A DNA stretch of 21,017 bases, from the NCBI GenBank assembly GCA_964388265.1, contig CAYLXZ010000003.1, positions 1 through 21,017 on the forward strand, in the 5' to 3' direction. The notes beneath the pieces were generated by a model that saw only the letters and a list, made by a program, of their open reading frames with translations, ran no database searches and was not told the origin of the DNA. The translations under genes were made by a program, and so were the position numbers. This DNA comes from Candidatus Micrarchaeota archaeon. GTDB lineage: Archaea; B1Sed10-29. Shown in pieces: positions 5,038-20,077 of the stretch; position 1 is the first letter of the stretch, and each line of letters opens with the position of its first letter.

Positions 5038-5462
5038 AGAAAGGATTCATTGGCCCGCTGGGAGATGACTTACCTTCACTCATAGCTATTATGCTAGCCT
5101 TGACTCTCTTCTTCTCAGGTTTAACTTTCTCTATGAATGTATTTGACCAGAAAAGAGAAAGAGCACGGTTAATGAAAGGAGCTCTTGACATAAGCAGGGT
5201 AATAATAAAAGAAAAAATCTTACCTATGCAGGAAGAAAAACTTAAAACCGGTGAAGCTAACAGCACAGCAGATAGCAATAACCTTGCCTTCAACGCAGGG
5301 TACGGGGAAGATGGAGTAGAAAATTTAGAGCCTCATCCTCCAGACGCTCTTAATGACAATAATGGATGTGGGAATAACAGTATCTACTTCAGTTACCTCG
5401 TTGTCAAGGAAGGAGGAGACCTAGAAACTCTTAGGGTATGCGTATGGGAGGCTGGAGCATGA
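5034..5462 (+). CDS. Prepilin-like (minor pilin), 142 aa
   Basis: MKKG|FIGPLGDDLPSLIAIMLALTLFFSGLTF. Start moved from 5028 to ATG 5034 because of the ATGA overlap with the previous stop and GGTGA at 5023-5027. Confidence 0.8.
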   Translation: MKKGFIGPLGDDLPSLIAIMLALTLFFSGLTFSMNVFDQKRERARLMKGALDISRVIIKEKILPMQEEKLKTGEANSTADSNNLAFNAGYGEDGVENLEPHPPDALNDNNGCGNNSIYFSYLVVKEGGDLETLRVCVWEAGA

Positions 5463-6022
5463 ATAAAGGACAGTCAGCTATAATGGACGCGTTATTCTTC
5501 ATGATCATATGCTCGGTGTCAGCTACCTTACTCTTCTACGTCTCCAGTCTCTATGGGCAGAGTGTGGACCAGGAGATAAGCGCTATCTACAACTTCGAAT
5601 ACACAGGGAATGCTCTACTTTCTCTGATGAACGTGGATGACGGTGAATTCTGGAGAGGTGTTCAAGAAAAAGTTGAAAATAATGAAGATATTTCAGATAT
5701 AAGGGAAAATATCAGTAGTTATAAAAATGGAAAGATTTGGGAAGAGGTCCTGAATTCTTCTCCAACCAACTACACCTTCCTTTGTTTTAAACCTATTAAT
5801 CCAATGGAGAATCCTGATGCTTGTGGTAACAGTGAGGGGTGTTACCCTGCTAATTATACGCGTGAAAGTAGCATGGGTGGTAACTGCGATTATAGGCCCC
5901 ACGATCCGGGGAAACCCTACAAGTGTAAGGAGAGTGATTTTAGTACTGCAAATTTTACTTCTTATACTCATTCTGTGGTTGTTGATTCTGGTTGCGGGGC
6001 TTTTATGGTGGTTTATTACTAG
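5459..6022 (+). CDS. Prepilin-like (minor pilin), 187 aa
   Basis: MNKG|QSAIMDALFFMIICSVSATLLFYVSSLY. Start moved from 5438 to ATG 5459 (ATGA overlap with the previous stop). Cys-rich C-terminal half. Confidence 0.83.
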   Translation: MNKGQSAIMDALFFMIICSVSATLLFYVSSLYGQSVDQEISAIYNFEYTGNALLSLMNVDDGEFWRGVQEKVENNEDISDIRENISSYKNGKIWEEVLNSSPTNYTFLCFKPINPMENPDACGNSEGCYPANYTRESSMGGNCDYRPHDPGKPYKCKESDFSTANFTSYTHSVVVDSGCGAFMVVYY

Positions 6023-9000
6023 TTGTTTAGTTTTTCTTGAAGTTCTTTTCTTCTTCGTATTGCTATTATTCCGCCTAGTATCGTTATTATGAATATTGCT
6101 AGTGTTGCTGGCTGTGTTGGTGTTGATGGTAGCTGTGCTGCTATTCCTGGTTTTCCTTTCTCTGCTCCTAGTTCTTCTTGTGGTACTGGTTGTTCTCTTG
6201 ATCCCCATGGTGACTGTTTTGGAGTCATCATGCCTGGGTTCTGCATTCCTGCTCCTCTTTGGCTGAACTGTGGGTTTAGTTTGAATGGGAACTCATTGCT
6301 TATGGAGATTTTTCCGTCTTTGTATTCCATCATTCCTCCTTTTCCCCATGCTCTTAGGAGTGGTGTGGAGGAGGTTACTTGTCCTCTTTTGTTCAGAAGC
6401 TCCATTAGTGGTTGTCCGTTTTCTCCTTTTCTCACTCTCATCTTTTTTCCATTTTCTAGCAGTATATCTCCGTTTTCTGCTATTTTATCTATTTTGTATA
6501 CTTTTGGTTCATCCATTCCTTCTCTCTGCACGTAGAGTTTGCCGTTGTCTATCCATATTCTTTCTCCGTCTGCTCCTTCAAACTGTGAGAACTGCATGTC
6601 GTTGGTTAAGTCGCTTGCTCTTTGGTTGTCCCAGAATGAATCTTCTTTTTCTCCGCTGGTGTCTGTTCCGTCCACGTTTTCCATGTTTATTGGGTCGCCT
6701 ATCTTCTCTCCGGTGTTAGAATTGTAGGCTTGTGCTTGTACTTCTCCATTTGGGCCTTCTTGTATGTCTATCTCTGTGTTACCTGTGTTTCTTTCATGTT
6801 TTTCTCCATCAGGGGTATTGATTATAATTTCGTCTCCTTCTTTTGTTATGCTTCCTTTTCCTTCTCCATCGATTTCGGAGAAGTTCAGGTCCTCTATCTC
6901 GGAGAGTTTCTTGTTTAATTTGCTTCCGAGGAGGTTCTTTAGAGCTGTTATGTTTCCGTCTTCATCAGTTACTCCTTCTCCACCCCAGTTCGCATCATCT
7001 GCATCGAAATCCATTAGGTTGTAGATCATTAAGTGGTTCCATTCATCGAAGTTTCTTGTCACGTTCTCTCCGTTCACTTTCACTTCTTTTTCTCCTCTTC
7101 CTGGGATTAGTTTACCGTTATCAAAGCTGATGAATCCATCTACATCTACTTTGAGGGTTTCTCCTAGTTTGTTGTCTCCATCTTCATCTTGTATCTCTAT
7201 CTCATTGTTTCTGTATACCTGGATCTTTGAGTCTGGGAATCTTATTATCTCATTTTTACCGTATTCTTCTCCTGTTCTTTCCGTGAACATTACTACTGTT
7301 TCTTGGTTGTTGTTCCAGATCACTGCTTGGTCTGTTCTTATCATCTGCAGGCCGCCTAGGAGTGTTTTTGTGCGGGTTGTTTCGGCTAGATCTTCTACTG
7401 TTCTTTTGACCTGTTGTTTCTCGAACTTCACTTCATCTGGTATTCCGGGGTTTATTTCCATTAATTCTTCTTGATCGGTTGAATTTCTTATGTTTATCAC
7501 TTTCTGCGGTATTGTGAGTATTCCTCTTTCGTTGTCCCATCTTAGTCCTCGTGCTTGTGGAGCGTCTTTTATTATGGGTGTACTTTCATTGGTTAGCAGT
7601 GAGTATCCTTCTTTTCTCATGCATCTGTATGCTCCTCCTTGGGTCTGGGTACAGAAGGATATGTCCTGAGCTTGATTTAAGAACCAATCTAGTTGTGAGT
7701 CTCTGTCAAAATGTATCTGGTACAGTTCTGATCCGTATAGTCGGGTATGGCTGCTTCCTTTTATTATTCCTTTTAGTGAGGGTGTGCTTATCATTGTTCC
7801 TGCTGCGAAGTTTTCAAGTGAGGCTTTTGTTTCCTGTGAAACTGAACCTAGCCCTATTGAGTCCATTGGGTTGAAGTTGGTGGATCCTCCTATTTGGCTT
7901 TTGACTTCATCTAATATATTTTGAGATCTATTCTCTGGTTCCGTGAGAGCACTCCATCCTAATCCAAAGTGAACAGTTTCTGTGCAGTTCTTCATTTCTC
8001 TTAATCCTTCTTTTTTCTCTCTTTCATATTCTTTTTCAGCGAAGTAGTTACCTATTGCAGCTCCTATTTGAGCTGCTGCTACTGTTAGCCCTACTGGCCC
8101 AGTAGCTGCGTATGATGATGCTGCTACGGCTATTCCTGCACCGTCAGTACCTATTTCTAATGTTTTCGTTGTTGCCATTAAAGCATAGGCTCCTTTTATA
8201 CTTGCTGTGGTATCCTCAATTTTATTTTCACAGAGATTCCCTCTGCTATAAGCTTCATCTATATCTACTACTTCTGTATATGTAGGGTCGTATCCTTTCT
8301 CTGCAGCATCTTCAGTGAGGGTCTGCCAAGCTTTCGGTGCGATGAATACGCCTGTGAGCCCTAAGGTAGCGTATTGTCCGTATTGTCCGAGTCCTGATGC
8401 TGCTCCTAACATCCCTCCGGATGCTCCTGCGAATATGGAGGATCCTATTAAGGCGGGGGTACTGGGAGTCATTTCCACGAGGTTTCCATAGGGTTTTGTT
8501 GTGTAGTCTCCTTTTGGTTTCATTTGAGCTAGTCCCCCTATGTCAAGTCTCTTCACCATAAAGGTTAGAGAGGTGTATCTTTTCCCGTTTCCAGGTACTT
8601 TGTAGGAGCGGGGGTGTTCGAATGAGTAGTAGTTGGATTTTTCAGGTGTTTGGCTGCTGATCATCCATTTTTCTTCTCCATGGAGATTTACTGGGAGTAT
8701 TACGTTTTTTCCCATTCCTCCGATTTTTTCCGGGACTGATCCTTCTTGGTCTAGGGCTATTATTCTCCCTGGGCCAGGGTTTTCTCTTATTTTACTCCTG
8801 ATGTACTGTACATCACTTTTCTCTGTTAGCATATCTTTTAAATTAGGAACGAACCATTCCTGCATGTTCTCAAATACTCCTGCTGGATACCAACCTTTAC
8901 CCTGAAGATATTCTGTGGATCTTATTATCTCGAAATATGAATCTAGACTTTCTTCTTGTTTTATGACTCTCTTTGGAGTAGCTCTAACTTCCATTTCAAA

Positions 9001-14423: not shown

Positions 14424-15167
14424 TTAGCTGTACATGGGGGAGGGAGCGGTTTCGGATGATTCTTTGTATTTGTTCTTGGCTTTCTTCATTCTTTTAACCA
14501 TCTTCTTCATCTTGCCTTCTATGTCTTTGGCTTCTTCTCTTAGTTCCTCGGTGTCTACGTCTATGTCTAGGAGTTCGTTTAGTTTTTCCACGAGGTCTGC
14601 TGCTGCTTCTGGGTCAGGGAGGTTTCTTCTTGATTCTACGAGCAGGCTCATTGTTGGGAAGTCTTTCTCCGCGGCTTTTGCGATCAGTTGACCTGATACA
14701 CCCATTGCTGCTCCTTCTTTTATTAGTGGAACGTCGTGGTCTTTTAGGTAGTTTTTCAGGTTGTCTTGGGATACTATTCCGTGTACGCCTTTCTTTTCTT
14801 CTTTCTTTTGGGTGGTTGCCATTCCTCCGATGGATATTATTTTCTTGAGTTTTTGTTCTTCTGCGAATTCAAGTATCTTTCCGGATAATTGATGGATCAC
14901 TTCATTTGGAACTATTAGCTCTCCCATTAGTAGGGCTATTTTCTTGCTTGGGTGTTTGAATATTCTTACTGGGAAGTAGGGTTTTCCTTCGTGGATTGGG
15001 GTTACTGGTGGGAATTCTTCGGAGTATACGTATCCTACTGGCTTCATTTCTTCTTTTTCAACCAGGTAGCTTGATGCGATTGTTCCTACTAGTCCTATTC
15101 CTGGAAATCCTTCGATTAACACGTGGTCGCTTAAGTCAACGTCTTCTGTGAGTTTTATTTCAACCAT
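14424..15167 (-). CDS. Proteasome assembly chaperone (PAC2) family protein, PbaA-like
   Basis: EGFPGIGLVGTIA, FPP, PVRIF, PDPEAAA and LREEAKDIE motifs; C-terminal HbYX motif MYS. Confidence 0.92.
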   Translation of the reverse strand: MVEIKLTEDVDLSDHVLIEGFPGIGLVGTIASSYLVEKEEMKPVGYVYSEEFPPVTPIHEGKPYFPVRIFKHPSKKIALLMGELIVPNEVIHQLSGKILEFAEEQKLKKIISIGGMATTQKKEEKKGVHGIVSQDNLKNYLKDHDVPLIKEGAAMGVSGQLIAKAAEKDFPTMSLLVESRRNLPDPEAAADLVEKLNELLDIDVDTEELREEAKDIEGKMKKMVKRMKKAKNKYKESSETAPSPMYS

Positions 15168-15310
15168 CTTTATCTTATTTATGTCGCTAAAACCTCTTCC
15201 TTTGAGGAGAGGATACAGCGTTCTTATTACATAATTAGTAATGGTAAATATATAAAGGGCAGGGATATATGAAAAATATAGTAGTTAAAGGTTGGTAGTT
15301 TGGTTGGGAT

Positions 15311-16417
15311 TTATCTCTTTGCCTTGAGGAGGTTTTTTCCTTTAGGGAGGAGAGGGATTGAGGCTATGTTTCTTGATGCGTTTAGATCAGCGTTAAGTTC
15401 AAAACCACACTCCTTACATTTAAACTCTCTTCTTTCCCTATTTTCTCTATCTTTGTAACCGCATTTAGAGCAAATTTGTGAAGTATATTTAGGGTTAACT
15501 TCTTTTATTGGGACTCCTTCCTCTTCTGCCTTATATTTAATTTTGTCTATTAGGTCTCGGAACCTCCAAGAGTGAATCTCTCTGTTAAATTCTCTTCCTT
15601 TATCTTCTTCTCTTATTTTTTCTAGTTTTTCTATTGCTATTCCATATTTGTATTTCTTGGCTAGTTCAACTACTTCTTTTGAGATTTTGTGGTTGATGTC
15701 ATTAGAGTAGTTTGTTTCTTTGTTGAAGATGTCTTTTAGTGCTCTCCAATGGTCATTTTCCCCTGTTTTTTCTTCTTGTAGGTGTTTTCTTTTCTCTCTA
15801 TATTCTTTTCTTCTTTCTCTTAGTTTTTTTCCATTATAGAATTTGTTGATTTTCCCTTTTGGATCTGATAACACTAATAAATGCTTAATTCCTAGGTCAA
15901 CGCCAAACCACCCCTTGGGTTCGTATTCTTCTTCGCAAGGTATCTTAAAGGCGATGTAGATAAACCAGTTGTTTTCTTTTTTCTTGAGAACGGCGTTACC
16001 GTATCCGTTGTTGAATAGTTTTTTGAATTTGCTGGGTATTATGAATGGAAGCCACTCTTTCTTTCCTTGTAGTAGTGGTAGTTGTATGAAGTGGCTGTTG
16101 ATTTCTATGAATCTTTTCTTGAAGCTCATTGAGTCTTCCTTATATTTTGACATTCCGTTTGATCGGTATATTTGTATGGCTCTGTTCATTGCTTCTTGTA
16201 CTGTTTCAGAGTATAGTTTTGGGTATTTTTCTCTTACTTTTTTGTATCCATGGCGGTGGGTGTTTCCTCTATTTGGGTATTCTCCCATTTCGTCTATTAT
16301 TTCGAGCCAGAGATTAATGGCTCCTTTGAATTTTTTTACTGCTTTTTTCATTGTTTCTTCTTTGTTTTTGTTTGGTTCCCTTAACTTGAATTTATAATAC
16401 CTTTTTTGCGTAACCAT
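15311..16417 (-). CDS. tnpB: RNA-guided endonuclease TnpB (IS200/IS605 family), ~368 aa
   Basis: RuvC-I GVDLG, RuvC-II IAIEKL, zinc finger CSKC/CKEC and RuvC-III NADLNASRNI, with all three catalytic acidic residues present. Start placed at ATG 16417 (MVTQKRYYKFKL), 23-30 nt downstream of TTTAAATA. Confidence 0.93.
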   Translation of the reverse strand: MVTQKRYYKFKLREPNKNKEETMKKAVKKFKGAINLWLEIIDEMGEYPNRGNTHRHGYKKVREKYPKLYSETVQEAMNRAIQIYRSNGMSKYKEDSMSFKKRFIEINSHFIQLPLLQGKKEWLPFIIPSKFKKLFNNGYGNAVLKKKENNWFIYIAFKIPCEEEYEPKGWFGVDLGIKHLLVLSDPKGKINKFYNGKKLRERRKEYREKRKHLQEEKTGENDHWRALKDIFNKETNYSNDINHKISKEVVELAKKYKYGIAIEKLEKIREEDKGREFNREIHSWRFRDLIDKIKYKAEEEGVPIKEVNPKYTSQICSKCGYKDRENRERREFKCKECGFELNADLNASRNIASIPLLPKGKNLLKAKR

Positions 16418-16439
16418 ATTGTTATTGTGGATAGTAAGA

Positions 16440-16449
16440 TATTTAAAGA
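16440..16449. promoter_or_regulatory. Putative bidirectional TATA box for tnpB (-) and omegaRNA (+)
   Basis: TATTTAAAGA reads TTTAAATA on - and TTTAAAGA on +; the spacing fits a leaderless tnpB mRNA and a + strand start near 16470. Confidence 0.5.
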
Positions 16450-16469
16450 TGTAGGGGAATAATGTATTA

Positions 16470-16652
16470 TAAGCTTGGCTATATGTCGAGCTGTTTGGAG
16501 CCCTTGCTGGCGGGGGTGCAAACAATCCATATTTGAACGGAACCTCTGTATTCAAGTTCTTAGTAATGGAAGTGTAACCTATAGAGTTCCTGTGTCAGGA
16601 ACCCTCTTCTTTCAGGGAGAGGAGGACGTCAGGGTATTTAACTTTGGGAATG
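16470..16652 (+). ncRNA. Putative omegaRNA (reRNA) scaffold plus ~20-nt flank-derived guide
   Basis: Three stems seen by eye: TGTTTG..CCCTTG-ctgg-CGGGGG..CAAACA (16492-16524), GGAACCTCTGTA/TATAGAGTTCC (16539-16590) and the right-end hairpin (16603-16622), ending in GTCAG at 16632. G-T pairs favour the + strand. The 5' and 3' limits are estimates. Confidence 0.6.
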
Positions 16653-16681
16653 TCTAGGTAACCTTCTTTTATTTAGTTTTC

Positions 16682-17572
16682 TCAGAGCAGTTCCAGCACG
16701 TTTATTGATTTAGCGACATTGAACAAGAGCAGGGATAGGGGTAGGAGTATAGATATATAAATAAGGGTTTTTTCTATTTCTTTTTCTTGGTATGCTACGA
16801 ATATCGATGCTATGATGGAGTATAGTGCTATGTAGATTTGGTTACCTAGAATTGAGTTTTTCTTAACTGCTTGTTTTACTCCTTGGCTGAGACCTATATT
16901 GAGTTCTGTGATCGGAGCTATTTCAAGGGTGTTTATCACTGAGATCATGGATCCTAGGAGCACTGGTACTATGAGTCCTCCTGCTAGTAGTAGAGTGTAT
17001 TTTTCCACGGTCGCGGATACTTTTCTTTTTCTCTTCATCTCATGTAGTTTTGAGGCTTCGTTTGCTGTTTCTTCCAGTGACTTGGAGAGGTCGCATCCTG
17101 TTTCATGTCCTATTATAAGTACTTCCACGGCTCTTTCTATTAGATCTGAGTTTATTCTTGCCTTCATGTCTTGAAGTGCTTTTTTCACGGATGAACCTGT
17201 CTTTATCTGTTTATAGGTTTTCTTGAATTCCTGTGCTAGTTCTCCTTCTTCCTTGGATATGTTTTCTAGGACTTTCTCCGTGTTTCTGTATGATGCGATG
17301 GAGGAGGCTTGGTAGAGCAGTGGAACTAGCTCTTTCTCCATCTTTCTTTTCTTCTTTTTCTCAAGGTACCTTGGGTAGAAGTAGAGGTATAAGGGCAGTG
17401 GTGAGGATAGGATGATGGCTAGTAGGGGTGTCAGCACTGGTTTTATTCCTAGGAAGAATAGGAACGCGAACAGCACCACTGGCAGAGTCATTGTTTTCTT
17501 CATTGTCTTTTTTAAGGTTCTTTTCCTCGGTTCTTTAAGTTTCTTCAATTTTTCTATATCCATTTTTATCAT
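16682..17572 (-). CDS. Type II secretion system F / TadC-like membrane protein, 296 aa
   Basis: GELAQEFKKTYKQIKTGSSVKKALQDM...SDLIERAV...ETGCDLSKSLEETA T2SSF pattern; TM helices at both ends; operonic with TadB-like gene and ATPase. Confidence 0.88.
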   Translation of the reverse strand: MIKMDIEKLKKLKEPRKRTLKKTMKKTMTLPVVLFAFLFFLGIKPVLTPLLAIILSSPLPLYLYFYPRYLEKKKKRKMEKELVPLLYQASSIASYRNTEKVLENISKEEGELAQEFKKTYKQIKTGSSVKKALQDMKARINSDLIERAVEVLIIGHETGCDLSKSLEETANEASKLHEMKRKRKVSATVEKYTLLLAGGLIVPVLLGSMISVINTLEIAPITELNIGLSQGVKQAVKKNSILGNQIYIALYSIIASIFVAYQEKEIEKTLIYISILLPLSLLLFNVAKSINVLELL

Positions 17573-18396
17573 TAGGGTTTCTTTGTTGCTGTGTAGCCAA
17601 GTATCAGGAGGTTCAGTGCTGGGAACCCAACTGCGGGTATTAGTAGCGCTTGTGTTGGGCTTATGTTTAGGTTTAGGAAGTTTGATCCTATTATCACTAG
17701 TGCTTGGAACATTGCTGGAATAACTGCGGATGCTGCTATGAATAGCAGTGAATATACGAGTAGTTTCTCGTTGTATTCCTTCATTTTGTTTCTTAGTATT
17801 GATTCTTGTTCTCTGGCTAGTTTCTTGAGTGCTTTGCTTCCTTTTTCTGGGTCTGTGGAGTGGATTGAGGTCATCTGGCTTGCTGTTCTTTTTATGAACT
17901 TGCTTGTGTTTCTTCTGCTCATCTTTGCTAGGGCTTCTGGGAAGCTTGATCCTTTCTTTAGGTCCTTGTTCACTTTCTTGAGTTCCTTTCCTCCTGGGTT
18001 ATCTTGGCTTGCGGCGTGTTGGATGGATCTGTGGAGTGGTGTACCTATCTTTAGTTCTGTTGAAATGGTTCTGAGTGCTCTTGCCATGGATCGATCCAGC
18101 GAGTTATTGTATTTCCTTTTCACTATTCCAGGGATCTTCGTTACCAGGTAGTAGAGGCTGCTGAAGGAGATTAACCCTATTCCAGCTGCTTTCACTGGGC
18201 TCTGAGTTAATAGCAATCCTATTAAGAGCAGTGAAATGGTTATTGATATACCTATGGATATCCTGATGTATCTGTCTGGATCTATATCTGTGTTTTTTAG
18301 TTTTCTCTTTATCTCGAGTCTTCTATTTCTAGGTATAATTACTTCTAGGGGCTTGAATCTTTCTTCAAGCATCTTCTTCGCTTCATCTGGATTCAT
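17572..18396 (-). CDS. Type II secretion system F / TadB-TadC-like membrane protein, 274 aa
   Basis: ALRTISTELKIGTPL...ELKKVNKDLKKGSSFPEALAKM T2SSF pattern with flanking TM helices. Confidence 0.88.
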   Translation of the reverse strand: MNPDEAKKMLEERFKPLEVIIPRNRRLEIKRKLKNTDIDPDRYIRISIGISITISLLLIGLLLTQSPVKAAGIGLISFSSLYYLVTKIPGIVKRKYNNSLDRSMARALRTISTELKIGTPLHRSIQHAASQDNPGGKELKKVNKDLKKGSSFPEALAKMSRRNTSKFIKRTASQMTSIHSTDPEKGSKALKKLAREQESILRNKMKEYNEKLLVYSLLFIAASAVIPAMFQALVIIGSNFLNLNISPTQALLIPAVGFPALNLLILGYTATKKP

Positions 18397-20077
18397 CTTT
18401 AACCTCTTTTATTATCTGTTCTTGGTTTTCTCCGTAGCTAAGTTCAAGTTTCTCCATCAACTTGGTTCCCTTCATCTTCTCAGGCCTGTATCCTTTTTCT
18501 TTGCTGTATATCTCTATTGGTTCTGAGTCTTTGTCCAGCGTGGATGCTTGGATTACTTTCCTCTTCTCTTCGCTTTCTTCTGAGTGATCTATCCATCTTC
18601 TTTGAACTAGGATTAGGTCTATTGTCTTCAGGTCGTTTCTACTTATTCCTAGGGATTTTAGCCTGGTTAATGTTTCTTCTGTTGAGTTTCCGTGGAATGT
18701 TGTGATTGTTCCTTTTCCCTGTCCTGCTAGCATGGTGTTGAACAGCGCCTCTACCTCCTTCTCATCTCTTACTTCGCCTACGATTATCCTGTCGGGCCTC
18801 ATTCTCAGTGTATCGGTTACTAGTTGATACATCTCTATGTCAAGTGATGGTGAGGTGGTTAGTCTTATCACGTGGTCTTGAGGAGGATTTACCTCAGGAG
18901 TTTCCTCTACGAGTATCAGCCTCTCGGTCTCTGGCAGGAAGTTTAGAAGGGTGTTGAGTGTGGTTGTCTTACCGCTTCCGGTGTTCCCTGCTATCAGGAT
19001 ATTCGTATCGCACTTCATGGTTCTTTCTATCAGTTTCATGAGACCTGGGTCTATTGTGTTGTTCTCTACAAGGTCTTTTGGTTTGAATTTGTCTTTTATG
19101 AATTTACGTATGGTCATGCAGTTTCCCGTGGTTGCAAGTGGCTCTATGGCTCCGTGTATCCTACCTTTATCTATATTGGCGTTTACTCTTGGTTTCTTCA
19201 GGGTTATTCTTCTGTCGAGTTTTCTTGCGGCTTTGTTTATAAGGTTCTTCACCTTCTCAGGGTTTGTTATCTCTAGATCTGTCTGTATCCACCCGTGGTC
19301 CACATGGTATACGTATAGGGGTTTCTTTGGGGCTATTATGGATATTTCCTCTAGTTCTTCGTCCTCTATAAGTGTCTCTAGTATGGATAATCCGTTTATC
19401 TCTCTGTGTATGTATCTGGCTATTTTCTCCACATGGTCTTCTGTGATCTCGAGGTTCATTTCCAGGCATTTTCTCTCAGTCTCTGCCTCTATCTCGCTTC
19501 TATCTGTTCCTGTTTCGTTTTCTCTGATGTGTTTTATTATCTCGCTGGTTATCTTGGCTTCCTGTAGCCCTAAGTTCTCTTCTCCTGTGAAGTAAACTGG
19601 TTCATCTCTTTCTTTGGTTATTGCGATCTTTCCTTCTATCTCTCTGGTTTTCTCTAGGTCTCTTACTCTGTATCCAATCTTCTCTCTTAAGGTATTTTTC
19701 TCTTCCTGGGTGTAAACTACTTCCAGCGCGTTGTATGGACATGCTTTCACGCATTTATAGTCCTCTTCACCCGCACATAGATTACATTTAATTGGTGTCT
19801 CTCCATCATGAAGTATCTTGCCATCGGATTTCTCCATGCAGAGCCCGCAGTCACTGCATTTCTCTTTATTCAACTGGTGGTTGTGCGATTGGTTTTCCTC
19901 GAAAGCTGATTCCGGGCAGTTTCTTGTTATGGATTCGTCTAGGCTCGAGGAATGGAAGAACTCCATTAATTCACTTTTGGAGTAGGTTTCCGTCATCTCT
20001 TGAGTTACTTGTGGACAGGCTTCAAAGCAAAGAGAACATCCCTCGACGCACTTGTCTCTATGTACCTCGATCTTCAT
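18383..20077 (-). CDS. TadA/CpaF/VirB11-family secretion ATPase with N-terminal [4Fe-4S] ferredoxin-like domain, 564 aa
   Basis: Walker A GNTGSGKTT, Asp box VEETPE, LRMRPDRIIVGEVR (Walker B) and TTFHG; 12 Cys in ferredoxin-type motifs within aa 10-113. Confidence 0.92.
   Translation of the reverse strand: MKIEVHRDKCVEGCSLCFEACPQVTQEMTETYSKSELMEFFHSSSLDESITRNCPESAFEENQSHNHQLNKEKCSDCGLCMEKSDGKILHDGETPIKCNLCAGEEDYKCVKACPYNALEVVYTQEEKNTLREKIGYRVRDLEKTREIEGKIAITKERDEPVYFTGEENLGLQEAKITSEIIKHIRENETGTDRSEIEAETERKCLEMNLEITEDHVEKIARYIHREINGLSILETLIEDEELEEISIIAPKKPLYVYHVDHGWIQTDLEITNPEKVKNLINKAARKLDRRITLKKPRVNANIDKGRIHGAIEPLATTGNCMTIRKFIKDKFKPKDLVENNTIDPGLMKLIERTMKCDTNILIAGNTGSGKTTTLNTLLNFLPETERLILVEETPEVNPPQDHVIRLTTSPSLDIEMYQLVTDTLRMRPDRIIVGEVRDEKEVEALFNTMLAGQGKGTITTFHGNSTEETLTRLKSLGISRNDLKTIDLILVQRRWIDHSEESEEKRKVIQASTLDKDSEPIEIYSKEKGYRPEKMKGTKLMEKLELSYGENQEQIIKEVKDESR

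Follow-up and report, generated by a model that had tools for sequence, protein, structure and literature searches.

An HgcC-like RNA placed head to head with tnpB: a candidate divergent guide RNA in a clade of archaeal TnpB elements

How a TnpB nuclease could be served by a guide RNA when its gene points away from the transposon end into which such an RNA should read is the question raised by a locus in Candidatus Micrarchaeota archaeon B1Sed10-29. The window, i.e., the whole stretch of DNA that was analyzed (21,017 nt of contig CAYLXZ010000003.1, assembly GCA_964388265.1), carries tnpB on the minus strand and, upstream of it on the plus strand, an RNA module that stops at a transposon right end. 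ISDra2 is reportedly one example of the canonical TnpB/omega-RNA (reRNA) elements of IS200/IS605, in work of Karvelis from 2021. Like canonical TnpB elements, the locus combines a RuvC triad and zinc finger, subterminal hairpins on one strand, an RNA whose 3' end is the right end with the flank as its apparent guide, and a pseudoknot adjacent to that guide. Unlike them, it has tnpB on the strand opposite to the RNA, pointing to the left end and with its last codons antisense to the left-end hairpin, while the RNA lies upstream, presumably has its own promoter and cannot be cut from the tnpB mRNA; moreover, there is no tnpA in cis and none was found in the organism's own genome (82% complete). 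The locus is likely to be an OMEGA-type element that has tnpB only, is IS1341-like and non-autonomous and measures about 1.32-1.34 kb, from about 15290/15313 to 16632, in which the genes for the nuclease and the guide RNA stand head to head.

The tnpB gene (15311..16417, minus strand, start ATG at 16417-16415), which was identified from the list of open reading frames (ORFs) and by Pfam, is intact and encodes a protein of 368 aa with the N-terminus MVTQKRYYKF. Pfam matches to OrfB_IS605 (PF01385, 43.4 bits) and Cas12f1-like_TNB (PF07282, 89.2 bits) both exceeded their cut-offs, and the closest solved structures were Cas12f/TnpB chains (E 2e-29). D174, E263 and D344 as well as C316, C319, C334 and C337 were invariant across the aligned clade proteins (n=24); going by their motif context (GVDLG, IAIEKL and NADLNA) and by the pattern typical of such nucleases, we take the three acidic residues to be the RuvC catalytic triad. 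Relative to its closest copy, L029, the gene shows a dN/dS of 0.069 and a synonymous divergence (pS) of 0.59, with silent sites near saturation. Codons 41-140 (window 15997-16294) have a pS against L029 of only 0.23-0.27, as compared to 0.66-0.88 in the rest of the gene, for which a recombination tract could be responsible, as could an overlapping constraint; these codons are overlapped by an antisense ORF (15969-16397, plus strand), which may be a composition artefact. A longer, TTG-started ORF that extends tnpB up to 16555 overlaps the RNA module, so that the RNA would look "antisense within the gene"; this ORF is probably unused and probably an artefact.

The 215 nt from the tnpB start to 16632 consist of an AT-rich spacer followed by a multi-stem region. 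A permissive Rfam scan that took in 14800-17000 yielded one meaningful match, to HgcC (RF00062), at 16497-16645 on the plus strand and over model positions 1-130 (30 bits, E 1.7e-4, the gathering threshold of the family being 50 bits). Together with the fold, the identity to L029 and a pseudoknot, this match delimits an HgcC-like putative omega-RNA scaffold at 16497..16632 (plus strand), although the RNA may begin somewhat before this, at about 16472. The scaffold starts with hairpin 1 (about 16500-16519, loop CUGGCG at 16507-16512) and continues with a variable middle stem, in which an 18-nt indel separates it from L029. Its 3' part comprises a GUUCC/GGAAC hairpin (16586-16602) and the right-end hairpin H3 (16603-16622, CCTCTTCT-TTCA-GGGAGAGG, with a UUCA loop), after which AGGACGTCAG leads to 16632; the last nucleotides of the tail AGGACGUCAG (16623-16632) pair with the loop of hairpin 1, and the module ends sharply with GACGTCAG at 16632. 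Hairpin 1, the GUUCC/GGAAC hairpin, H3 and the AGGAnGUCAG tail all align to the HgcC model. The window RNA resembles HgcC in its full-length model alignment, in its hairpins with GUUCC/GGAAC stem and UUCA/UUUA loops, in its tail and in a tail-pairing loop of the form CUGRCN; it is unlike HgcC in its low score, in its longer and different middle stem and in an extra 5' stem.

As a plus-strand RNA, 16470-16632 folds with a minimum free energy of -55.9 kcal/mol (z -2.82; 2 of 200 shuffles were equally good), whereas a sense-strand stretch of equal length downstream of tnpB folds weakly (-24.9 kcal/mol, z -2.09). The only omega-RNA-like module at the locus is thus upstream of tnpB and on the opposite strand, and not downstream and co-oriented as in canonical elements. 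The extra stem, of 7 bp (AGCUUGG/UCGAGCU, 16472..16492, plus strand, found by folding), directly precedes the HgcC-like core and shows, in L029, one double change from C-G to U-A and one change from G.U to G-C; it is either the 5' stem of the RNA or a promoter-proximal element. Between the divergent units lies the AT-rich spacer (16418..16471) with the TATA-like sequences ATATTTAAAG (16439-16448) and TATTATAA (16465-16472), so that two TATA-like boxes are found within the 79 nt between the HgcC 5' end and the tnpB ATG. The right flank GGTATTTAACTTTGGGAATG (16633..16652, plus strand), the point at which copies of the element diverge, would by analogy with canonical TnpB systems serve as the guide, and T-runs at 16667-16680 represent a possible transcript end.

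An independent copy of this unit was found by a metagenome scan on L029, a contig of 2015 nt that encodes a TnpB 84% identical to that of the window and that also carries the RNA module upstream of tnpB, in antisense. In BLASTN, L029 152-1490 corresponded to the window from 16632 down to 15318; homology sets in precisely behind TCAG and tails off at the tnpB stop, and both flanks are unrelated. Identity between the two copies was 34/54 in the spacer (16418-16471), 54/66 in RNA positions 16472-16537 and 69/73 in RNA positions 16560-16632; set against the background pS of 0.59, the last of these values indicates selection on the RNA. In a contig comparison of four DNA runs from two studies, contigs in 4/4 runs parted right behind 16631/16632 into different flanks, depth peaked at 16568-16661, and many contigs stopped matching behind 16631/16632. 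Likewise, in six close clade copies the right-end flanks differ and the boundary falls directly after GGTCAG. Judged from sequence, the depth peak and the divergence behind 16632 have the look of a transposon end followed by a variable guide. These data bear out several points of an earlier, sequence-only reading of this DNA, namely that an intact tnpB lies on the minus strand, that about 160 nt of multi-stem sequence at its 5' side stand head to head with it as a guide-RNA-like module and run into the right end, and that the flank GGTATTTAAC occupies the guide position. Misassembly as the source of the arrangement was dropped, because complete genomes as well as an independent metagenome contig contain the same unit.

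L029 also shows how the element interrupts its surroundings. Seven tandem 11-mers (TGACACTAAAA) are located left of the element (L029 1512-1590); this array halts 14 nt before the tnpB stop and restarts 3 nt past the right end, which fits a clean insertion with a left end about 14 nt beyond the tnpB stop. On the other side, at L029 96-148, one further 11-mer unit is followed by a perfect 20-nt palindrome (CTAGGAGTAATTACTCCTAG). These repeats and the palindrome resemble the iterons of a small replicon or virus, which may have been the insertion target.

Further evidence that the plus-strand module is related to guide RNAs comes from TnpBs with the conventional layout. Three TnpBs of 35-46% identity, encoded in a same-family genome (L021), on contig C1 of the organism's own genome (L024, a partial gene) and in a metagenome (L030), are accompanied by the same two 3' hairpins and by GAGGAnGTCAn, and in these three the RNA module is downstream of tnpB on the same strand. 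TnpB omega-RNAs are known to form a pseudoknot adjoining the guide, as in the ISDra2 structures. Here, 14 RNAs were scored for pairing of the hairpin-1 loop with the final 6-7 nt in front of the boundary, and the pairing was complete in 12; the exceptions are L030, in which it is complete only one base over (CUGACAU/AUGUCAG), and the solo module C14b, in which it is partial. In the window, 16507-16512 pair with 16627-16632 (CUGGCG/CGUCAG), while compensatory variants are found in bona fide HgcC (CUGACC/GGUCAG), L060 (UUGACC/GGUCAA), L029 (CUGAUG/CGUCAG), L024 (AUUGACC/GGUCAAU) and in both the solo module C14a and the canonical L021 (GUGACA/UGUCAC). RNAalifold independently recovered this long-range helix. 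The G.U pairs of the window and L029 would turn into A.C on the minus strand, so that it is the plus strand that is under selection.

The layout is more general than the sequence-only reading supposed. A protein search of a large collection returned two groups of relatives of the window TnpB, i.e., nearer relatives (at least 41% identity) with short C-terminal tails (..NIASIPLLPKG.. or ..RAFLPALKGEASSPQ..), among which are proteins labeled as coming from Thermococcus, Natronomonas and an Asgard metagenome-assembled genome (MAG), and more distant ones with long C-terminal tails. The full-length clade loci assembled here, all collected by protein queries only, number 16 and comprise the window, L029 and 14 loci from 11 other archaeal genomes. 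A sample of 401 genomes reaching across Archaea yielded five clade loci in four genomes, and in 5/5 HgcC was located directly upstream of tnpB on the opposite strand (129.1, 122.9, 107.7, 65.8 and 34.5 bits). Across these four genomes, HgcC matches of at least 50 bits within 3 kb of a TNB-domain gene were all (4/4) in the divergent layout, three weak HgcC-like matches (26-44 bits) were downstream of and co-oriented with other TNB genes, and seven further matches of at least 50 bits in one genome (G215) were all solo. A second sample, of 133 genomes of one class, yielded ten loci; HgcC (48-122 bits) was upstream on the opposite strand at all nine full-length loci, and the tenth is a gene fragment without HgcC. 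HgcC or HgcC-like RNA is therefore found upstream of tnpB and on the opposite strand at 16/16 full-length clade loci, most of the 14 further loci scoring well above the Rfam cut-off; bona fide HgcC, with up to 129 bits, thus occupies the same upstream-antisense place beside relatives of the window TnpB. The homologue comparison shows that the arrangement is not unique to this contig and that conservation lies on the upstream antisense side rather than only downstream of tnpB.

The spacing is also recurrent, with 11-124 nt between the HgcC 5' end and the tnpB ATG in 13 of the 14 further loci; the value of 309 nt printed for L073 was left out of this range, as the script had chosen an internal start in a TGA-broken gene. 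In six closely related loci the spacer measures 55-64 nt and contains a single TATA-type box, with the sequence TTTTAAATAC or one much like it, which precedes the HgcC 5' GAGGG by about 20 nt and is approximately 30 nt from the ATG. The spacer could, on this sequence pattern, represent an archaeal promoter region that is either shared or arranged back to back. When 27 TnpBs were placed in a maximum-likelihood tree, the 16 proteins with divergent layout formed one clade (support 90/89), as did the 14 clade proteins without the window pair (98/96); of the 11 rows outside the clade, a single one is of established canonical layout and ten are unclassified for layout. As the clade loci are kin, they would represent one or few ancient events that were then conserved, and not 16 independent events. 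Searches of genome-contig and viral-contig collections with protein or clade-alignment queries gave only distant TnpBs or nothing, and tblastn of the TnpB against plasmids gave only matches of no more than 34% identity. A search for HgcC in the phylum to which a Methanobrevibacter MAG belongs (151 genomes) gave no match, which is uninformative given the stricter filters and the choice of phylum. At G213:C14:5313-7905, an IS607-like pair on the minus strand (resolvase 6353-6751, TNB domain 5313-5471) has an HgcC match of 48.9 bits about 0.8-1 kb upstream on the plus strand and may be a serine-recombinase version of the divergent layout.

In the proposed mechanism, the plus strand would bear both end hairpins (15333-15352 and 16603-16622) and the omega-RNA, which would start at about 16472-16497 and pass 16632 into the flank, so that by reading past the right end it would acquire the flank as its guide. 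Transcription of tnpB would proceed in the reverse direction out of the same short AT-rich spacer, and TnpB would bind the separately made RNA in trans; as the RNA lies outside the tnpB mRNA, no processing from that mRNA would be needed. The complex would then cut DNA with a target-adjacent motif (TAM) and a match to the guide, i.e., the empty donor site, as in canonical homing. The orientation of tnpB would be irrelevant to homing, as the RNA would need only to share the hairpin strand and to face the right flank. The sequences themselves establish the anatomy, the sharp right boundary, purifying selection on both TnpB and RNA, the relatedness of the RNA to co-oriented guides, with its covarying pseudoknot, and the clade-wide recurrence; we infer the start and end of transcription, RNA-protein binding, guide length, TAM, cleavage and the mobilizing transposase. 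A broader proposition is that a monophyletic archaeal TnpB clade, in which the nuclease gene has been turned inside the transposon, has HgcC as its guide RNA; we hold this to be somewhat more probable than its opposite.

With regard to the left end, the window element most likely starts, on sequence comparison, within 15290..15313, the interval in which L029 homology fades and to which the relatives point. By analogy with these relatives, the boundary would be the tnpB stop or up to about 21 nt beyond it. On the HgcC strand most relatives show the stop-codon complement, about 20 nt ending in GGAAG, a TTTA-loop hairpin and AGGAA, and among the 15 relatives examined on this side, this left-end-type motif, mostly with a hairpin, coincided with the tnpB 3' end or lay within it; in close copies, mutual homology starts at the tnpB stop codon. 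The corresponding window hairpin, H2 (15333..15352, plus strand, antisense within the last tnpB codons), reads TTTTTTCC-TTTA-GGGAGGAG followed by AGGGAUUG and contains four G.T pairs, so that it forms on the plus strand only; its L029 counterpart is a perfect hairpin, CTCCTTCC-TTTA-GGAAGGAG-AGGAAT. Subterminal hairpins thus stand at both ends on the plus strand (15333-15352 and 16603-16622), as they do in relatives, and in G310 a weak HgcC-like match occurs on the HgcC strand at the position of the left-end hairpin. The element is single-copy in G310 and in G372. Candidate TAMs are TTAAA for the window (15285-15289) and TAAAA for L029, and the left motifs of Thermococcales-type copies are TCTAA, CTTTA, TTTAA and TCACA; an A/T-rich motif may be more likely than TTTAT. 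In four Thermococcales-type copies (L061, L068, L070 and L071), tnpB runs right up to the edge of the element with ..AGGAGGTGA, and the ATG of a host gene follows 4-6 nt past the element on the same strand, the edge looking like a Shine-Dalgarno sequence for this neighbor.

The sequence-only reading had instead set the left end at 15183, with TAM TTTAT; both assignments are probably wrong. Its left end was hairpin module H1 (15186..15219, plus strand), with a hairpin at 15193-15212 (CCTCTTCC-TTTG-AGGAGAGG), which is outside the shared element. H1, H2 and H3 are alike and all have pyrimidine arms. H1 and the right-end hairpin, described as near-identical and in direct orientation, do share their orientation on the plus strand, whereas the identity is 79% over 24 nt. 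An element spanning 15183-16632 with L029 as a left-end deletion derivative, for which the empty allele would read TTATTTAT joined directly to GGTATTTAAC, has features in its favor: the H1 stem equals the right-end stem at 14/16 positions, the spacing is mirrored (each hairpin stands 10 nt away from its boundary, which follows TTTAT on the left and TCAG on the right), GTCGCTAAAA resembles GTCACTAAAA, of which the L029 copy has repeats on its left side and a single occurrence 3 nt beyond its right end, the H1 module is multi-copy in metagenomes, and the native spacer would be 64 nt as compared to 85-120 nt in relatives. This element nevertheless appears rather unlikely. L029 shares nothing with 15183 to about 15290, its 11-mer array resumes 3 nt after the right end and places the left end approximately 14 nt beyond the tnpB stop, and in relatives the left motif GGAAG-hairpin(TTTA)-AGGAA is found at or in the tnpB 3' end with homology starting at the stop, a motif that H2 and its L029 counterpart fit and that H1, with no AGGAA tail, does not. 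Moreover, the H1 module, which in metagenomes produces a depth spike (bin 15158-15251) with loose ends before 15186 and behind 15219, is single-copy in its own genome and, at up to 3 mismatches, was found in none of 30 other genomes of the phylum; no copies were found in viral contigs. H1 may be what is left of the end of another element. Next to it, the 10-mer GTCGCTAAAA also resembles the 11-mers TGACACTAAAA/TGTCACTAAAA that flank the L029 copy on both sides. In the four DNA contig runs no contig bridged the element and none spanned the joint of an empty allele or an excision, and the similarity of the presumed native spacer (15168-15310 plus 16633-16681) to the corresponding spacers in three same-family genomes did not exceed that of shuffles, of which 45-247 of 500 were equally good.

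Two further explanations concern the function of the upstream RNA. It could regulate tnpB in antisense, the true guide being the sense-strand tnpB 3' end, which would end at about 15290-15313. A hairpin does lie in the tnpB tail (15333-15352), canonical omega-RNAs overlap the ORF 3' end, HgcC transcription in T. kodakarensis begins, for three RNAs, within transposase genes and in sense, according to the portion of PMC4247193 available, and the element ends approximately 0-21 nt from the stop codon, so that a sense RNA could reach the flank. We regard this as quite unlikely, since the plus-strand RNA is homologous to the co-oriented guides of relatives and carries the pseudoknot to the last base before the boundary, since the tail hairpin forms on the plus strand only (G.T becoming A.C on the other strand), and since the flanks behind GTCAG vary freely, as a guide side should. 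A minus-strand reading of the left end would also give unlike target motifs (ATACC in the window and CACTA in L029), and synonymous sites in the last tnpB codons show no unusual conservation (pS 0.71 against L029). Alternatively, a gene-less guide mini-element (a PATE or stand-alone omega-RNA) could have landed by tnpB, with TnpB using an RNA of its own in the usual orientation; solo HgcC-like modules on contig C14 of the own genome, in G215 (the seven matches mentioned above) and on a viral contig would make such an event conceivable. Against such a chance neighborhood, which we consider very improbable, stand the recurrence of the pairing at 16/16 loci in several archaeal families with the same spacing and orientation, the unit shared by the window and L029 up to the same right boundary in different flanks, and the downstream side of tnpB, where nothing is conserved beyond the stop and the minus strand, with its weak fold, gave no HgcC match at E<=1.

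Several points weigh against a divergent guide RNA gene in the window. The start, end and strand of the window RNA are predicted from DNA, its HgcC score is under the cut-off, and H2, with its four G.T pairs, may be decayed; left boundary and TAM are placed, by sequence, only to candidates. Gene-less HgcC-like modules are common (C14, G215 and the viral contig), so that adjacency alone is weak evidence. The 16 loci come from 12 genomes and one contig, with 9 of the 14 further loci from one family, and sampling by protein query may leave room for other layouts in unsampled members of the clade. Furthermore, a Y1 transposase (PF01797) was not found in the own genome, which is 82% complete.

Comparison with known RNA families places the locus between several of them. 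HgcC has been known since 2002 (Klein et al., via PMC4247193 and PMC4615843; these two papers are used here as far as the available portions go). HgcC RNAs have been verified by northern blot and differential RNA-seq (Jäger et al. 2014, PMC4247193), and one P. furiosus HgcC was reported as antisense to a transposase gene (PMC4247193). By that account, the arrangement was glimpsed once, before TnpB was known to be RNA-guided, and was not read as a guide. The architecture, which the sequence-only reading had proposed as distinct, is a layout that holds across the clade, and its RNA belongs with an already known family for which an antisense case is on record in the available part of PMC4247193. 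HgcC carries the right-end (RE)-like UUCA tetraloop of IS1341-type tnpB sense-overlapping RNAs (Gomes-Filho et al. 2015, PMC4615843), and its function is described, in the portion available, as unknown (PMC4615843). The Halobacterium sotRNAs (RF02656/RF02657), which are made from their own start sites according to the same portion of PMC4615843, are similar to the window RNA as RE-derived UUCA-tetraloop RNAs of archaeal tnpB-only elements; as described there, sotRNAs are sense and overlap the tnpB 3' end, whereas the window RNA is upstream, antisense and non-overlapping.

PATEs and stand-alone omega-RNAs share with the locus the same RNA module with transposon ends, solo copies of which occur in the own genome and in those of relatives; unlike PATEs, which are gene-less IS200/IS605 derivatives, the window module is paired with an intact tnpB under selection, in a geometry that is fixed clade-wide. 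In IscB/IsrB systems, the omega-RNA is upstream of the nuclease ORF and co-oriented with it, and the guide is at the 5' end next to the left end. The window likewise has its RNA gene upstream of the nuclease, unlike these systems in divergent orientation and with the guide position 3' next to the right end. A full-text literature search for HgcC together with TnpB found only Gomes-Filho 2015 (PMC4615843), and no description of a divergent layout of a TnpB guide was found, the available portions of PMC13565253, PMC12558985 and PMC4810608 included; Klein et al. 2002, Altae-Tran 2021 and all supplements were outside this comparison and may bear on novelty. HgcC as the guide RNA of a divergently encoded TnpB is our own reading.

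As to its genomic setting, the element is located between a T2SSF-type gene (16682-17572) and a PAC2-family gene (14424-15167). In three same-family genomes these two genes are separated by 85-120 nt, as compared to 1514 nt in the window, which identifies the element as an insertion. At L047, in the same-family genome G004, a different stretch of 1.2 kb with small ORFs is found between the same two genes, and the spacer may be a recurrent insertion spot. The right end (16633-16650) adjoins CCCAAAGTTAAATACC (minus strand), which resembles the CCAAAACCTTAAATA box found upstream of the PAC2-family gene in two relatives (L045/L046), a likeness that was not significant against shuffles; the insertion may have split the PAC2-family gene from its TATA box and left it reliant on read-through from tnpB. 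No second copy of the element was found in the own genome. Y1 transposase (PF01797) was also absent from the 5 other clade-host genomes searched (91-99% complete). Serine recombinase (PF00239) was not found in the own genome or in G310 and was found in 3/5 other host genomes, beside other TNB genes and never beside clade loci. With no Y1 transposase found and serine recombinases only beside other tnpB genes, the element appears to be non-autonomous.

Among the solo modules, two gene-less HgcC-like copies in the own genome (G000:C14:6804-6943 and 8252-8393, i.e., L014 1436-1640 and 2949-3090; plus strand, no tnpB nearby) flank, in direct orientation, the gene for a 412-aa AAA_14/DUF4143 ATPase. 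One viral contig of 11.9 kb carries two gene-less HgcC-like direct copies of approximately 240 nt (L056 1-236 and L057 about 2290-2531), about 9.1 kb apart, of which the right-end hairpin is almost identical to that of the window; no clade-type tnpB was found within the fetched flanks. Elsewhere in the window, a T2SSE/FlaI-type ATPase (18383-20077, minus strand) is extended at its N-terminus by about 130 aa that contain several cysteine motifs of the 4Fe-4S type, for which the Fer4 matches were weak and some of them under the cut-off.

Taken at the level of sequence, the locus points to a conserved TnpB/omega-RNA variant in which the nuclease gene is inverted and the guide sits on its own divergent unit, and it would link HgcC to a function. 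The HgcC RNAs of hyperthermophilic and other archaea would thereby gain a concrete candidate role, as guides for the TnpB encoded next to them on the opposite strand. If true, this would be a natural two-gene TnpB system with divergent genes sharing one compact promoter region, in which guide and nuclease levels could be adjusted separately; stand-alone HgcC copies could use TnpB in trans, so that one TnpB might serve several guides, and the arrangement could be seen as a step toward the separate guide loci of CRISPR-Cas12. TnpB guides would then not all have to derive from the nuclease mRNA, which is relevant to the making and regulation of OMEGA ribonucleoproteins and to the origin of separate guide genes on the way to Cas12, and surveys restricted to co-oriented omega-RNAs downstream of tnpB would overlook or wrongly assign the guides of the whole clade, whose members are compact nucleases of about 360-400 aa that are probably thermostable.

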